DNA from: a phage
Assembly: GCA_024614665.1 (NCBI GenBank)
Contig: GCA_024614665.1_4861.1
Direction: 5' to 3' (one strand)
DNA: 64,000 bases
A program made the translations under genes and the position numbers. Position 1 is the first letter of the stretch; every line of letters begins with the position of its first letter. This document shows, piece after piece, positions 33,186-54,845 of this stretch. A model generated the notes under the pieces. That model made no database searches. It was given only the letters and a program-made list of their open reading frames with translations, and was not told the origin of the DNA.

Positions 33186-33394
33186 CGTACACCGTTTCCG
33201 TATACAGCAGGTGTGCTAAGACACCCTCCTTATCTCTCGACAAGGCACAGACTATATCTTCACCATAGCTTACGCCTTAGGTGTTCTCCCACTTCGAAGT
33301 CCACTAGGACCCCTACTCGCATTTCAGCGATAGTCGTTGAACATTCCTCTCACGAGGCTTCGCTGCTGATTACCCATTATCACAACCCTTAGCA
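33186..33394 (-). other. putative intron in beta-prime-like gene (boundaries uncertain, may span about 33200-33600)
   Basis: ORF-free gap between beta-prime N-terminal homology and the DFDGD segment; no ORF inside. Confidence 0.45.
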
Positions 33395-34897
33395 CTATTG
33401 TTTAGCATAGGTCATCGTATCTGTTGTTTCAGACTTTCGTCCCCATTTCTGGTAGATACGCTTTAGGGTTTCCCAGCAATTCAGGAGAATACACATCGGA
33501 GGTTTCCCGTCCGATGGGGCTCTTTTCGAACCGTTAGCCATCTTTATCACACGGTCAGAGATACGCAGCGAACACTGGTTAACATCGGTAACAACTTCGT
33601 CGATGAACAGCGTCTGAATAGACAACTGTACCAGCGTTGGGTTACGTAGCGGTATAACCATGATCCCAAGACCGCCTGGGGATTCACGAATCAGTTCTTT
33701 AAAGATTTCGTCTACAAGCGGGTCATACTGCATTGCCGCTTTTGCGACGATACGTTCACACTGCCGCGACGAATAACCCCGGCGTAGCAGTTTGTTCTCG
33801 ATGTGGGTCGACATCAACCCAACCATCCAACGCCATGGTGCTTTTAACTTCCAGGCATCGTGTGGTTCTGAGATAGGTGAGATGGTTGCACGACCACCGA
33901 ACGGAATATGGGTGGAACCCAATTTCGCACGATAGTCACCCGGTTTACCTTCCATAGACTCACGACGGAAGTCCATGTGGAAGTACGTTAACTGACGGTT
34001 CGCTTTCAAAGCGCGACTAATCAGAAAACGCGGTTCGATCGCTTTACGCCGCGTATAAAGTAACGCGATATTTTTCACCGCATCAATAGCACCCGTGAAC
34101 ACTGGGTCTACCATGACACCACGACGACCTTCCTCAGTAACGATAAGTTTAGAGGAGATTAGCGGTAAGTGTCTTGGGAAGAATGCATGGCGTTGCGTTT
34201 CGAATAGCTCCTTCCATTGTAAACGTAAGCGTTCGCCTTCAGCGGCGTTATGCCGATTAGGTGCGAAGATTTCCTTCCAGGCTTCTGGCGTGGTAAGGAT
34301 GTTAAAGATACTAACGTGGTTATCAACCAGATTGCGCAAGCCACGAACGAAACCATGTTCTTCCAATACACGTTTCACAGCATGTGCGCGTTTACCGTCT
34401 GGTTCTTCTATAAGGTAATACGGGTCAATCATCCACATCATCAAGTCATTACCGCGTTCGATAGTGACCTTGTTACGTTCAAACTTCTTCAACTTGCTAT
34501 TAAAGAAAGCATTGAACATTGCCCAGAATCGTGGGTTGACGAAGTTACCCATTTCATCAGGTGCACGTAACCATACATCGGATTCAATTCGATGTTCAGT
34601 TACAACATAGCCACACGTCGGACACTTACAACCGAGATTGTAACGATGCGCGATCGGTGCCGGACAATCCAAACTACAAATCGGTGCAGAGTTCAGTTCT
34701 TCGTCAACGATTCTGTTCTGTACCATGCGATCGATAAGTTCAGCAACCTCGATCGCATCCCCGTTAACAGCGACATCGTTAATAATAGTGGGTGGTTTAA
34801 TACCTTTGGCAGCAGCTTCTATTTGCAAATCGGACAAATAGTTATCCTGACTAACCAACCGGCCGGATATTCCGTAGAATTTTGGTACCTTTCTCAC
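33395..34897 (-). CDS. RNA polymerase beta-prime N-terminal-like subunit, putative exon 1
   Basis: Zn-finger-like CSLDCP...CKCPTC; LRNPTLVQLSIQTLF resembling RpoC NRQPTLHRMSIMAF; catalytic DFDGD absent from this ORF. Confidence 0.65.
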   Translation of the reverse strand: MRKVPKFYGISGRLVSQDNYLSDLQIEAAAKGIKPPTIINDVAVNGDAIEVAELIDRMVQNRIVDEELNSAPICSLDCPAPIAHRYNLGCKCPTCGYVVTEHRIESDVWLRAPDEMGNFVNPRFWAMFNAFFNSKLKKFERNKVTIERGNDLMMWMIDPYYLIEEPDGKRAHAVKRVLEEHGFVRGLRNLVDNHVSIFNILTTPEAWKEIFAPNRHNAAEGERLRLQWKELFETQRHAFFPRHLPLISSKLIVTEEGRRGVMVDPVFTGAIDAVKNIALLYTRRKAIEPRFLISRALKANRQLTYFHMDFRRESMEGKPGDYRAKLGSTHIPFGGRATISPISEPHDAWKLKAPWRWMVGLMSTHIENKLLRRGYSSRQCERIVAKAAMQYDPLVDEIFKELIRESPGGLGIMVIPLRNPTLVQLSIQTLFIDEVVTDVNQCSLRISDRVIKMANGSKRAPSDGKPPMCILLNCWETLKRIYQKWGRKSETTDTMTYAKQ

Positions 34898-50926: not shown

Positions 50927-51418
50927 TCACCTCCGTAGTTCGTAAGTGCTAATCTCACCACCGGTGTAGATATCGCATTCGGACGCAATCTCAACAGCAC
51001 GAACCGCATTCGCGCCCATCTTCATCGCACCCAACGCGTACTCGTAACCGCTTCCGGTTGCCAGAGGTGGTGTGGCTTCACTCCACCACAACGACACGTC
51101 GTCTTCACGCTTCCCACCGACTATCGCTTTCCCTGAGGCCAGAAGCATCAGGAAAGTAAAATCCATCTTCGCAGGTAACTGCGAGCTTTGTGTTAACCCC
51201 TTGTAGCCGGGTCTCAAGCGGATAGTTTCCAGCAGGGCCAATTGTCCTGTGATGTCGCCGCTTACCCCGAACACCACAATTCGTTCACCGGTAATCCACC
51301 ACTCCTCGTCAGGAGGACAGACGAATAACTTCTGGGTATTCAGGTTGCAGATATTCGACCCACGGGTTAACTGGCCGTCAGCAGCTAAGACTTTTCCATC
51401 GAACGCTATCGTGGTCAT
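50927..51418 (-). CDS. HslV-like N-terminal-nucleophile peptidase
   Basis: MTTIAFDGK..AADGQLT..VFGVSG..TGSGYEYA..ASECDIYTGGE resembles E. coli HslV including Thr directly after initiator Met; GGAGA SD. Confidence 0.7.
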   Translation of the reverse strand: MTTIAFDGKVLAADGQLTRGSNICNLNTQKLFVCPPDEEWWITGERIVVFGVSGDITGQLALLETIRLRPGYKGLTQSSQLPAKMDFTFLMLLASGKAIVGGKREDDVSLWWSEATPPLATGSGYEYALGAMKMGANAVRAVEIASECDIYTGGEISTYELRR

Positions 51419-52388
51419 GATTTAATTCTCCGTTTGGTTTATCATACCTCACGCAGAATCTGTAAATTTTAATCAGCCAGGTACCGTCGTTTCTCAACGG
51501 GAGTACCCACCCCTCTCGTCTGTTCCGAGCCGCCAAGATTTGGACCAACCTCCTCGTCGGAGTTATCCCCCAAGTCTGCGGTTCTACACGCAGACCCCTT
51601 TTCGACGCAACGCCGAATTCGAATCAGTTTTGGCCCGACGCCAGAGCGGAATCAGCGATAACTATCGGAGGTAAGTTCAACGACGTCTCTCCGCTGCCCA
51701 GTCCTCTGGCGCTGCCACGGTCAACTCGGATTTTGTCATGGGTGCGCAGTCGACTTTCTCGACACTCTCGCAAACCGAACTACGCCCGACGTAGCACCGT
51801 CGGCAGGTCGGTTATTTACCGAGTACCTGAATGGGTGGTGATTGTCGGAATCCCCGCCGACGCTCACCGGTTCTGTTCCACGGCGAAAGTTTTCCAGAAC
51901 ATAATAAATCACGCAGTGTTAGATTGCGCTTTGTCGAAGACACCACGGTAGGTATTTTCGAAAAAGCGTCCTGGGTAACAATCCCAGGACTTGGAGCCCT
52001 AGCGTGCAGGGTTTAAAAGTGATTGGACCATTGGCGCGGTCAATCGCTATTCGCATATAACAACAAACTCACGTAATCAAAAAATTACCGGCTCGAGGCG
52101 TAGGCGTCCAGGAGCCGGTGAGTCACACAGCAGTGAGTCCCTCTGCGGGGATTTTCGTGGAGCTTGTCGTTGGAATAAAAATCCGTCCCCGGACGGGTTG
52201 GTGGTGTGGGTCGACTTGTCAGAGTCTGCCGTCCAGGGAGGCGGCCACCGAAGCTATGGGTTTTGGACATCGAGTGGTGGTCTGAACACACGATAGGGAA
52301 ACCACGTAAAAAATACACAGGGTACCCAAACCAGGACGTCTGTCCGATCACGATCTCTTAATAAGGATCACGCGCGCGCCCGCACGCG

Positions 52389-52497
52389 TTTTAAGATCTT
52401 AATATATTAATATATTTATTTATATAAATAATTATAATAATTAAATATAATACCTAAAGGTATTATTATATTTAATATTATTATATATTTTAAAAGA
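52389..52497. repeat. 109-bp almost pure AT island with internal palindromes, flanked by alternating CG tracts and ATAAGGA direct repeats
   Basis: Perfect 16-bp palindrome TTATTTATATAAATAA at 52416-52431; CG tracts 52369-52388 and 52511-52532; ATAAGGA at 52361-52367 and 52533-52539. Confidence 0.7.
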
Positions 52498-53124
52498 TCC
52501 TGGAGGATACGGGTGTGCGCACGCGCACGCGTATAAGGAAAGGGTCTTCGACCCGATCCACAGGATCGATCTAAAAAACAATCTAAGTGATTGTTTTAAA
52601 AAGAAATTTTGAGAATTAGATTAAATTATCCCCTAAGGGGGATTTTAGAGTGAGTTAAACAACCCAAAGAACTCGTAAGTAACCGACAGTGTGTGTCGGT
52701 TACAGAACGATCCAGTTTTCACCCAGACATGGCACGAAGTGCTACCCAACGTGTGATCGTCGTCGCCGGCCGCGACCGTCACCTCGGAGCCGAAACGGGA
52801 ATGGCACTCTCGCGCTCTCAACGGCCCGCTGGCGCGATTTTCCGGTAGGGGGAACCCAAGTGTACTGGGTCAGGTATAAATCTCGTTCTAGCGCTTTCTA
52901 GAGCGTTTTTAATAACTGGTTAAAAAACATACAATCCTGAATCCACATTCCCTGAATTTCCTCGCCCCGACAAAAATAAATTCTCTGTCTCGATACATAA
53001 CCCCCTCTAAAACGCACGTAACCGACCCTAGAAAACGATAAACTGCCAAAAACGAGCTACCCTACATCCAGACCACTTAATCGTTTTCTGACGTCTCCTA
53101 GACCCCCTTTAACCGGCCGGTTAA

Positions 53125-53184
53125 AAAATAATCAAAAAAAAATAAAAAAAATAAGATTGGCGTACTCCCCGAAGAGAGTACGCC
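53125..53184 (-). terminator. intrinsic terminator
   Basis: Hairpin GGCGTACTC-loop-GAGTACGCC followed on minus strand by long T-run. Confidence 0.65.
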
Positions 53185-53191
53185 TAGTGAC

Positions 53192-53701
53192 TTAACACTT
53201 GATGGTATAGCCATCAAGGCCAAGGTGTACTGGTTTTATCCATAACCCTGGCTCCCCGAAAATATTCAGGTCGTAAGTTTGGTAATGCATGATCTTTGCA
53301 GGAACATGCACACCCATGCGCTGCAGAAATTCCCAGACGGCGATGTAGCGTTCACGTGTGATGAACATTAACCCGGAGTCGAACCCGGAACCGATGTCTA
53401 AGAAATTACCAAGAGAACTGTCAAAACTTGACACACCATCTTGAGTAAGTGCGACCAACCCTTTAGTTAAATCTCTGTGGTTGTCAATGAAGTTACAGAG
53501 ATCTACGATGGTTATTTGACCGTAAATACGACGGAGGACGGCAGCAACAGCCAAAATCTCGCTGGTATTTCCGTAGTCACCTAAAGGGTTATGGTCCATC
53601 ATCGCAGTAATTATGCTTGTGTCACAGAGGTCGATTAACCGCTGGTCGTGTACCACCAGGTTAAGACCTTGCCCCACCCGCATGGTTGGCGCAGTAAACA
53701 T
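53192..53701 (-). CDS. hypothetical protein
   Basis: Start set at ATG (MFTAPTMRV) with AAGGAG SD; terminator downstream. Confidence 0.65.
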   Translation of the reverse strand: MFTAPTMRVGQGLNLVVHDQRLIDLCDTSIITAMMDHNPLGDYGNTSEILAVAAVLRRIYGQITIVDLCNFIDNHRDLTKGLVALTQDGVSSFDSSLGNFLDIGSGFDSGLMFITRERYIAVWEFLQRMGVHVPAKIMHYQTYDLNIFGEPGLWIKPVHLGLDGYTIKC

Positions 53702-53711
53702 AGGATGCTCC

Positions 53712-54845
53712 TTACGTTTTGACTGACTGTGAAGGTAATCTGGCATCGTACATTAAAAAGATTTCCAGCAGGCTCATACCCGTCGCGTAAAAGATTTGGT
53801 CTGTGATGACACTCACTAACGCTTCCGGGTCTATTGCATCTACCGCAAAATCACTGTCGAACTGCCAGAACTCGACGTCATCCCCCTTTTCAAACATTGC
53901 GGCATATAGTCCAGGTTTTACACCACGCCGGAACGAAAAGAGTTTTGCGTCAGACTCAGTGTCCTTACCATAGATTTCCCCATCAGTCCGTGTGATCGCT
54001 GCACGTTTACACCGAGTTACCGTAAGGAGCGCACGGTTTGCAGATGCTTGCGATTTAAACGGATAGGGGCCATCGTATGTCGGGACATTCTGGTCGCCTA
54101 AGGCATCAAGTGCCTTACTCCGATAGACTACCGGAGACTTAAAATTACACAGTCGATTCCCTTCGGTAAACATTGTGTATTCGACCTTAACGTCGGTACC
54201 GACGAGGTCAGCAGGGGACACTTTGTAGTGTGCTAATTGTCCCTGCACGCGGCGAGAAAGCATCGATGCCAGGAACGTGTGGTTGCCCTGTGTGCGCAAG
54301 ACATACCCAAACTCTGTGCAGTCGATGATACGAGCGTCCATACGTCGTACAGGCTCCAGCCGGTAAGTCACATCATTCGCTTCGATAAGAAACTGACTGA
54401 TGCTAACATCGCGAGATCGATGTTTGATTGCTTCAAACACTTCACCCGCTTCCAGAATGGCTGGTTCAATTACATTGACCTGGAATGGGAGGGGTTTCGT
54501 CGGCCGTTGACCCATTGTTGTCACTGTCATCGAACGTAGCCATGGATCGTCCTCGCTAGGGTCATTGGAAAGCCAATGTGTTAACCAGCGAGAAAGGTTC
54601 TGTGGAATCGTTGCGGTAGAATATAAAATCACGGTACCCATTATGCCTGCATCGGCCAGCAAGCGTGCGAGTACCGTGTTCATCGAATCGTATTTACCAT
54701 TTCGAAGAATAGGTAATCCTCCGACCTGGACCATTTCGCAGATGACGCCGTGCGGCAGCACCCACATCTTCACTTGTTGGGCAGAATGTATCTGTCCCGT
54801 GCGTAGCTTTTCCTGCCACGCGTGCTTACGTTCATAGTTCATCAT
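53712..54845 (-). CDS. hypothetical protein
   Basis: 377-aa ORF. Confidence 0.7.
   Translation of the reverse strand: MMNYERKHAWQEKLRTGQIHSAQQVKMWVLPHGVICEMVQVGGLPILRNGKYDSMNTVLARLLADAGIMGTVILYSTATIPQNLSRWLTHWLSNDPSEDDPWLRSMTVTTMGQRPTKPLPFQVNVIEPAILEAGEVFEAIKHRSRDVSISQFLIEANDVTYRLEPVRRMDARIIDCTEFGYVLRTQGNHTFLASMLSRRVQGQLAHYKVSPADLVGTDVKVEYTMFTEGNRLCNFKSPVVYRSKALDALGDQNVPTYDGPYPFKSQASANRALLTVTRCKRAAITRTDGEIYGKDTESDAKLFSFRRGVKPGLYAAMFEKGDDVEFWQFDSDFAVDAIDPEALVSVITDQIFYATGMSLLEIFLMYDARLPSQSVKT

Follow-up and report, generated by a model that had tools for sequence, protein, structure and literature searches.

A G-poor, strand-asymmetric tract in the gene-free region of Seoulvirus phages, tentatively read as a relic of gene turnover

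Gene turnover offers a tentative explanation of the G-poor tract at 52935-53117: a relic that has been retained on the sense (minus) strand, where it would serve as a C-poor spacer or leader, and that contains three conserved blocks of unassigned role; we put the probability of this reading at roughly 0.4. The tract lies in a window of 64,000 nucleotides (the whole stretch of DNA analysed) that belongs with the SPN3US-like jumbo phages (genus Seoulvirus), at 94-99% identity. SPN3US-like jumbo phages have multisubunit RNA polymerases of their own. The reading is preferred because the repeats flanking the tract match gene ends, its distribution is patchy, the junction is hyperplastic, its divergence falls in the neutral range and its open reading frame has a neutral substitution pattern. 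In addition, its skew has the sign of that at four-fold degenerate sites, its variable columns are near neutral, and it gives no fold or Rfam signal. We infer in addition that the body of the tract descends from a gene, that it is transcribed as a minus-strand leader with little structure, and that the blocks and the fixed length have a secondary role in cis and are not a matter of chance.

The tract forms the right end of a 1.77-kb region without a credible ORF (51419-53191). This region is flanked on the left by an HslV-like peptidase gene (50927-51418, minus strand) and on the right by a minus-strand gene at 53192-53746 (phrog_9731, function not assigned), whose stop codon occupies 53192-53194. 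The minus strand carries nearly all neighbouring genes as well as tRNA-Trp. The terminase gene is 3.4 kb from the tract, and the replication genes are 10-45 kb away. Searches with the neighbouring and inserted genes gave no match in Pfam and only families of unknown function in PHROGs. In the literature searched on SPN3US-like phages there was neither a transcriptome nor a described replication origin, packaging (pac) site or large non-coding RNA, and the region went unmentioned. In GenBank, the SPN3US record has both its ends in the non-coding region, and 51 bp (window 52606-52656) are missing where they join.

The remainder of the gene-free region contains three conserved segments. The first, 51450-52340, comprises about 900 nt without an ORF and is 70-90% identical to SPAsTU, with parts 77% identical to Erskineviruses. 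Its conservation exceeds that of four-fold sites in neighbouring genes (47-49%), and Rfam gave no match to it; the segment may be a large non-coding RNA or a cis-element. In the second, 52344-52542, some 100 bp consist of A/T only (GC 6%) and have a hairpin at their centre, the stem of which co-varies between phages. This A/T-only element is clamped by CG-alternating arms (52369-52389 and 52512-52531) and keeps about 80% identity across Seoulvirus, Erskinevirus, Machinavirus and Wellington-type Erwinia phages. It resembles an element of the DNA-unwinding, origin or pac type. The third, 52540-52905, is a hairpin-rich module in which 16 (plus strand) or 22 (minus strand) predicted pairs show compensatory changes among six phages of three genera, for example GTAACCGAC/GTCGGTTAC against GTAATTCGC/GCGAATTAC.

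The strand asymmetry of the tract is far beyond chance. The stretch 52900-53110 contains 24 G in 211 nt on the plus strand (11.4%), together with 65 C, 70 A and 52 T. Of 63,790 sliding windows, the 52 poorest in G all overlap this site, and the stretch is one of them; it also has the strongest GC skew of the 64-kb window. The best-scoring G-poor segment extends over 280 nt (52875-53154) and contains 31 G (11%). The core at 52935-53117 consists of 31% A, 34% C, 10.5% G and 24% T on the plus strand; it is unique in the genome and confined to Seoulvirus. The homologous 181 nt of SPN3US hold 64 G and 19 C on the sense strand. Their skew of 0.54 is the most extreme in the 240,413-bp genome, where the runner-up reaches 0.48. 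The scarcity of G on the plus strand reported in the preliminary description is thus borne out, and is extreme for a 240-kb genome. The suggestion made there that this is other than random intergenic DNA also holds, in view of the extreme skew, its retention in three lineages at 58-68% identity and the clustering of invariant columns.

Part of the skew follows a general trend of the genome. Sense-strand four-fold sites of SPN3US (ORFs of at least 100 codons) contain 31% T, 29% G, 22% C and 18% A, a GC skew of +0.14. The tract skew shares this sign and is four times as strong; no other intergenic stretch of SPN3US exceeds +0.22. Strand bias in SPN3US follows gene orientation, and the cumulative GC skew tracks gene direction. 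The composition of the tract is kept in every genome, with 10-14% G and 32-38% C. The columns that are invariant in three lineages include only 5 G in 83 (6%) on the plus strand, whereas variable columns hold 17% G against a neutral expectation of 22% (P 0.06). The asymmetry therefore arises mostly from conserved C/A-rich positions, atop the general strand bias. On the minus strand, GGG occurs 11-16 times against 6-9 expected (z about 1.3-2.5), a mild clustering of G runs. The tract may display the raw mutational strand bias of a genome with almost no unconstrained DNA.

Read along the minus strand, gene 53192-53746 is followed by a hairpin with a U-tract, the repeat R2, about 185 nt of G+T-rich and C-poor sequence, the repeat R1, the hairpin module and the A/T-only element. 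The left border of the G-poor segment is a terminator-like hairpin on the plus strand (52884-52910), with arms CGTTCTAG and CTAGAGCG followed by TTTTT; the block CGTTTTTAAT is invariant in 12/12 Seoulvirus genomes. On the right, the minus-strand hairpin GGCGTACTCTC-TTCG-GGGAGTACGCC (53159-53184) has 11 pairs, 7 of them G-C, and ends gene 53192-53746. The A-run of the plus strand (53125-53158) is its U-tract, T8-A-T9 on the minus strand, and varies in length between isolates. The whole element (53125-53184) thus combines a G+C-rich hairpin and a U-tract directly after a stop codon. Like a Rho-independent terminator, it has a G+C-rich 11-bp stem, a UUCG loop and a long U-tract after the minus-strand stop codon; it differs only in that the U-tract is bipartite, very long and of isolate-variable length. 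Its position is shared by phiEaH2, Asesino, SPAsTU and pEa_SNUABM_29 (pEa29 below), but the stem sequence is different. A 239933insT difference has been reported in SPN3US stocks (PMC7411985), and this homopolymer difference maps to the A-run. The A-run and terminator hairpin pointed out in the preliminary description are hence real, but as the terminator of a minus-strand gene they are ordinary.

The short repeat and the palindrome singled out earlier fare less well. CCTGAAT does occur twice on the plus strand (52936-52942 and 52951-52957), but 31% of shuffled versions of the tract also contain a 7-mer repeated within 30 nt. The heptamer has 7 occurrences on the plus strand of the window, the pair has a P of 0.12-0.31, and both copies are mutated in SaP7, MET_P1, SPAsTU and pEa29. 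A 15-nt tandem duplication behind the pair was considered and dropped, the match being limited to the 7-mer. The palindrome TTAACCGGCCGGTTAA (53109-53124) is likewise present and overlaps the start of R2. It is one of five perfect 16-nt palindromes in the window, where about one is expected. Only the window, phage 1252 and SaP7 have it intact; nine other genomes, SPN3US, SPLA3, SPFM4, JN03, Lh1B, MET_P1, SPAsTU and pEa29 among them, have it broken. It is neither beyond chance nor conserved. A palindromic operator or restriction-like site was rejected on this lack of conservation in relatives. A protein-binding array in the iteron sense, with at least three conserved copies at regular spacing, was rejected as well: the tract holds no array of a repeated motif, only the two chance-level copies of CCTGAAT, which are mutated in relatives. 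What related phages do conserve is the composition and the three blocks.

A 17-nt direct repeat, R, brackets the core. Its two copies are 201 nt apart and 82% identical: R1 at 52916-52934 (plus CTGGTTAAAAAACATACAA; minus TTG TAT GTT TTT TAA CCAG) and R2 at 53118-53135 (plus CGGTTAAAAAATAATCAA; read, like R1, on the minus strand). The sequence GGTTAAAAA has only one further occurrence in the window. No terminal inverted repeats were found around the tract, only the direct repeats. A transposon- or MITE-type insertion was rejected, given the lack of terminal inverted repeats, a single site per genome in 35 records and no internal homology. Nor is the tract an internal duplication of the remaining non-coding region, against which the best local score equals the shuffle mean.

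The tract occurs once per genome in all 35 matching phage records, including the distant SPAsTU (72% identity). A third distant Seoulvirus lineage, pEa29, is outside these records and was found by a search with 52300-52930; direct alignment shows that it also carries the tract. An alignment of 12 Seoulvirus genomes covers the three lineages (SPN3US clade, SPAsTU and pEa29). Pairwise identity of the core among them is 58-68%, and at this divergence of about 40% its length varies by only one or two single-base indels. The sister genera are arranged differently. In the Erskineviruses (phiEaH2, Asesino and a metagenomic relative), two R copies stand 5 nt apart with no tract between them, and an additional 182-aa gene has a third copy across its stop codon. 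Machina (Machinavirus) has a single R and no tract. The hairpin module and the A/T element are kept in these tract-less phages, so that the tract is dispensable for the module. By the same distribution, the tract is either a Seoulvirus-specific insert between R copies or was deleted elsewhere. Distant copies were sought in three further ways: a pattern scan of IMG/VR gave two chance matches in an unrelated phage and was discarded, a metagenome scan returned only 95-97% relatives, and a protein-anchored search returned phiEaH2-type loci without the tract.

The repeat R matches the end of a gene family that sits at this junction. In the minus-strand frame, R2 of SPAsTU and the R copies of the Erskineviruses and Machina read TG TAC ACT TTT TAA CCA. 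The 176-aa gene of pEa29 ends in TAC ACT TTC TAA, and the 182/183-aa genes of the Erskineviruses phiEaH2 and Asesino end in CTG TAC AAA TTT TAA CCA. The 182-aa Erskinevirus gene and the 176-aa pEa29 gene belong to one family, phrog_23699. Its terminal codons and stop are recognisable in R, for which the best interpretation is the fossil end of a phrog_23699-type gene. Residues 121-175 of the phrog_23699 profile are collinear with a frame of the tract and end beside R1, with a score of only 0.2 bits. This match has an E value of 0.24 among nine frames and is reached by 1% of composition-matched shuffles; it is post hoc and below inclusion thresholds. At the nucleotide level, with R excluded, the tract shows no significant similarity to phrog_23699 gene ends (P 0.06-0.77). 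Descent of the tract body from phrog_23699 is thus plausible from context, the homology not being statistically established.

The junction has clearly been unstable, and the gene contents of related phages mark it as hyperplastic. Beside the terminator and R2, SPAsTU carries an inserted gene of 205 aa, pEa29 genes of 199 and 176 aa, and the Erskineviruses the gene of 182 aa. The 205-aa and 199-aa genes are homologous (46% identity), and the SPAsTU and pEa29 inserts separate gene 53192-53746 from the terminator/R2 module. At the opposite edge, beside hslV, SPFM4, phage 1252 and SPAsTU carry other inserted genes. Lineage-specific genes without an assigned function are thus found at both edges of the gene-free region, at window positions 51415-51418 and 53145-53151. 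On the preferred reading, the tract marks the junction beside the terminator as a hot spot of small-gene gain and loss.

A sequence of events consistent with the preferred reading can be outlined. Gene turnover at a recombination-prone junction would leave non-coding DNA behind. R1 and R2 would be the fossil last codons and stop of a phrog_23699-type gene (..Y-T/K-F-stop, then CCA), and the interval from R2 to R1 would most likely be the decayed C-terminal part of such a gene. The 5' side of the gene would have been cut off before the three Seoulvirus lineages split. The hairpin and U-tract would stop transcription after gene 53192-53746, and the tract would then be read as a minus-strand leader through read-through or restart. 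The skew would have two sources: the genome-wide sense bias (G>C and T>A at four-fold sites), unchecked by coding, and the invariant positions, which are C/A-rich on the plus strand.

The tract shares with phage gene remnants and pseudogenes its fossil stop-codon motifs, a frame with internal stops, neutral substitutions and absence from sister genera. It differs from them in its conserved length, its three invariant blocks and a skew far above that of synonymous sites, and in that homology to a parent is not statistically established. T4-type phages have hyperplastic regions with repeated promoter/stem-loop cassettes (PeSL), as Arbiol et al. reportedly described in 2010. The present junction resembles them in the short repeats beside terminator stem-loops that flank variable inserts, in its lineage-specific small genes and in the remnants. 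Unlike those cassettes, R occurs at this locus only and looks like a fossil gene end, not a regulatory cassette. If the tract is such a relic, it is an ordinary by-product of gene turnover and is valuable mainly as a marker.

Several observations weigh against a simple relic. Invariant columns are clustered, and the blocks they form have starts 42 and 43 nt apart. The length is nearly constant despite about 40% divergence. Four-fold sites have only a quarter of the tract's skew, and no other intergenic stretch of the genome is comparable. The flanking 17-nt direct repeats should favour deletion, but all 35+ genomes keep the tract. The nucleotide similarity to phrog_23699 ends is not significant and the profile match was found post hoc. 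Finally, pEa29 has both the tract and an intact member of the family, and an extra, older copy must be assumed.

Three blocks are identical in 12/12 genomes of the three lineages: AAAATAAATTC (52973-52983), CACGTAA (53015-53021), which starts 42 nt after the start of the first, and TACCCTAC (53058-53065), which starts 43 nt after that of the second. The spacing is close to four helical turns. The blocks are unrelated in sequence and share no motif, and none of them is found elsewhere in the genome. The invariant columns fall into 29 runs where 43 +/- 3 are expected, and 26 of them are in runs of at least 6, against 2.8 expected (P about 1e-4). Between lineages, identity at four-fold sites is 47-49% in two neighbouring genes (g377 and g458) and 69% in the adjacent g184; the divergence of the tract lies between these neutral benchmarks. 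The tract has almost no indels, although comparison of these genomes shows many in the structured module next to it. The clustered blocks and the near absence of indels suggest some constraint on the tract.

The main rival holds that the tract is a Seoulvirus-specific DNA cis-element, accessory to an origin or packaging site at the adjacent A/T-only element, and is rather unlikely. In one version, a protein complex would assemble on AAAATAAATTC, CACGTAA and TACCCTAC, about four turns apart and on one face of the DNA. In another, the G-rich non-template strand would promote an R-loop upon leftward transcription. The clustered blocks, their 42/43-nt spacing and the length fixed in three lineages agree with such an element, although two equal spacings among three blocks are weak evidence and the blocks neither share a motif nor recur in the genome. 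The site is unique in the genome and is 400-700 nt from the 100-bp, 6%-GC element, which is about 80% conserved in at least three genera. The terminase gene at 3.4 kb and the replication genes within 10-45 kb would suit this function. However, the sister genera keep the A/T element and the module without the tract, which therefore is not part of a core machinery. The tract has the most extreme GC skew of 240 kb and a mild clustering of minus-strand G runs (11-16 GGG against 6-9), yet the runs are too widely spaced for canonical quadruplexes. The cumulative GC skew follows gene orientation and does not switch here; an origin called from that curve was rejected for this reason.

A stronger form of this proposal, that the tract is a working replication or packaging cis-element of nucleus-forming jumbo phages, with a G-rich non-template zone and three phased protein footprints forming the origin or pac region of SPN3US-like phages together with the A/T element and the module, is improbable. 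R-loop-primed origins include ColE1 RNA II and T4 oriF and oriG. The tract would resemble them in having a G-rich non-template strand upstream of an A/T-only, unwinding-type element within a large gene-free region. It differs in that it has no known promoter or initiator and is missing where sister genera keep the A/T element. If the fixed length and the three blocks do reflect function, the tract would matter more. It lies inside a 1.77-kb gene-free region conserved across several chimallivirus genera. That surrounding conserved region is more worth experiments than the tract itself.

A small protein is also doubtful. A 29-codon ORF, MYRDREFIFVGARKFRECGFRIVCFLTSY, runs on the minus strand from 52998 to 52909, with a Shine-Dalgarno-like block, GAGGGGG, upstream, and would be translated from an ATG or TTG behind this ribosome-binding block (GAGGGGG or GAGGGTG). 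The predicted peptide reads MYRDREFIFVGARKFRE(C/W)GFRIVCFLTSY. The 12 genomes all keep the frame open, stops being expected at about 7% of random codons on this strand, but its openness under random substitution is not significant (P 0.17 for SPAsTU and 0.34 for pEa29). Translation would start at ATG, at TTG or at an ATG displaced by one codon, and the distance from EFIF to the stop is exactly 24 codons in three lineages; in pEa29, however, the N-terminal frame is shifted by a 1-nt insertion, which leaves the start in a poor context. Three of the C-terminal changes between lineages are synonymous (R, V and L), whereas in the close clade about 12 substitutions are non-synonymous and only 2 synonymous. 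By this pattern the ORF evolves neutrally, with no sign of purifying selection. The ORF is unannotated in the matching records, and two of the invariant blocks (53015-53021 and 53058-53065) lie outside it.

If the tract is transcribed, the context favours the minus strand rather than the C/A-rich plus strand. In the adjacent hairpin module the covariation term is slightly better on the minus strand, and in the hairpin ACCCA...TGGGT the pairing is kept in SPAsTU and pEa29 only through G.U pairs of the minus strand. This slightly minus-favouring pattern suggests transcription along the neighbouring genes, in which case the tract would be a C-poor 5' spacer or leader.

A Rho-loading (rut) site or single-strand landing pad in a plus-strand RNA, which would stop antisense transcripts before they enter gene 53192-53746, is very improbable. 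The composition is suitable: the plus strand has 34% C and 10.5% G over about 190 nt, and for a threshold of at least 80 nt C/G is 3.3 over 181 weakly structured nucleotides. The minimum free energy of the plus strand is only -20.8 kcal/mol for 195 nt. The tract also comes directly after the plus-strand terminator-like hairpin with its T5. In contrast to known rut sites, which are likewise C-rich, G-poor and weakly structured, this strand is antisense to all neighbours and has no known promoter. The G.U patterns of the neighbouring hairpins favour the minus strand, if either, and G is avoided in the conserved blocks rather than at variable sites. Transcription by the phages' own polymerases takes place within a vesicle and a proteinaceous nucleus (PMC13282480), and with this compartmentalisation host Rho is unlikely to reach the RNA.

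That the tract is a structured non-coding RNA, or part of one, is extremely improbable: it adjoins the module with 16-22 compensatory base pairs and can form a 10-bp stem (53030-53039/53080-53089), but this stem is not retained in SPAsTU and pEa29, folding is no more stable than in shuffles (z -1.0 on the plus and -1.3 on the minus strand), Rfam has no match to the tract at gathering score or even at E<10, and a strand with 10% G (or 10% C) allows few stable pairs. A hairpin at 53030/53074 is absent from SPAsTU and pEa29. Two related candidates were rejected. A long-range pairing between 52643 and 52998 is not kept in SPAsTU, and the 4-6 minus-strand GGA motifs of a CsrA sponge compare with 4.4-5.8 expected from composition.

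Promoter-like motifs of the window were searched for in the tract. It has no copy of the recurrent motif CAGATAGATATTATCT or of the weaker candidates CTT(A/G)TAG and CGACTAT, and a sigma-70 scan found nothing in it. Elsewhere in the window, AGATAATATCTATCT on the plus strand (the minus-strand form being CAGATAGATATTATCT) has 9 matches against 1.2 expected, with sites at plus coordinates 22871, 26614, 28030, 36880, 36973, 45198 and 48165. CAGATAGATATTATCT sits 30-60 nt upstream of minus-strand genes; in all probability this phage group uses it as its AT-rich early promoter, the one read by the virion RNA polymerase.

Two other RNA features were noted on the minus strand of the window. A group I intron is located at 33228-33537 (Rfam RF00028, 65.5 bits). 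The segment 49532-49675 gives two tRNA-like Rfam matches (30.6 and 38.1 bits) that are uncalled by ARAGORN, and its equivalent in SPN3US is annotated as one 'tRNA-OTHER'.
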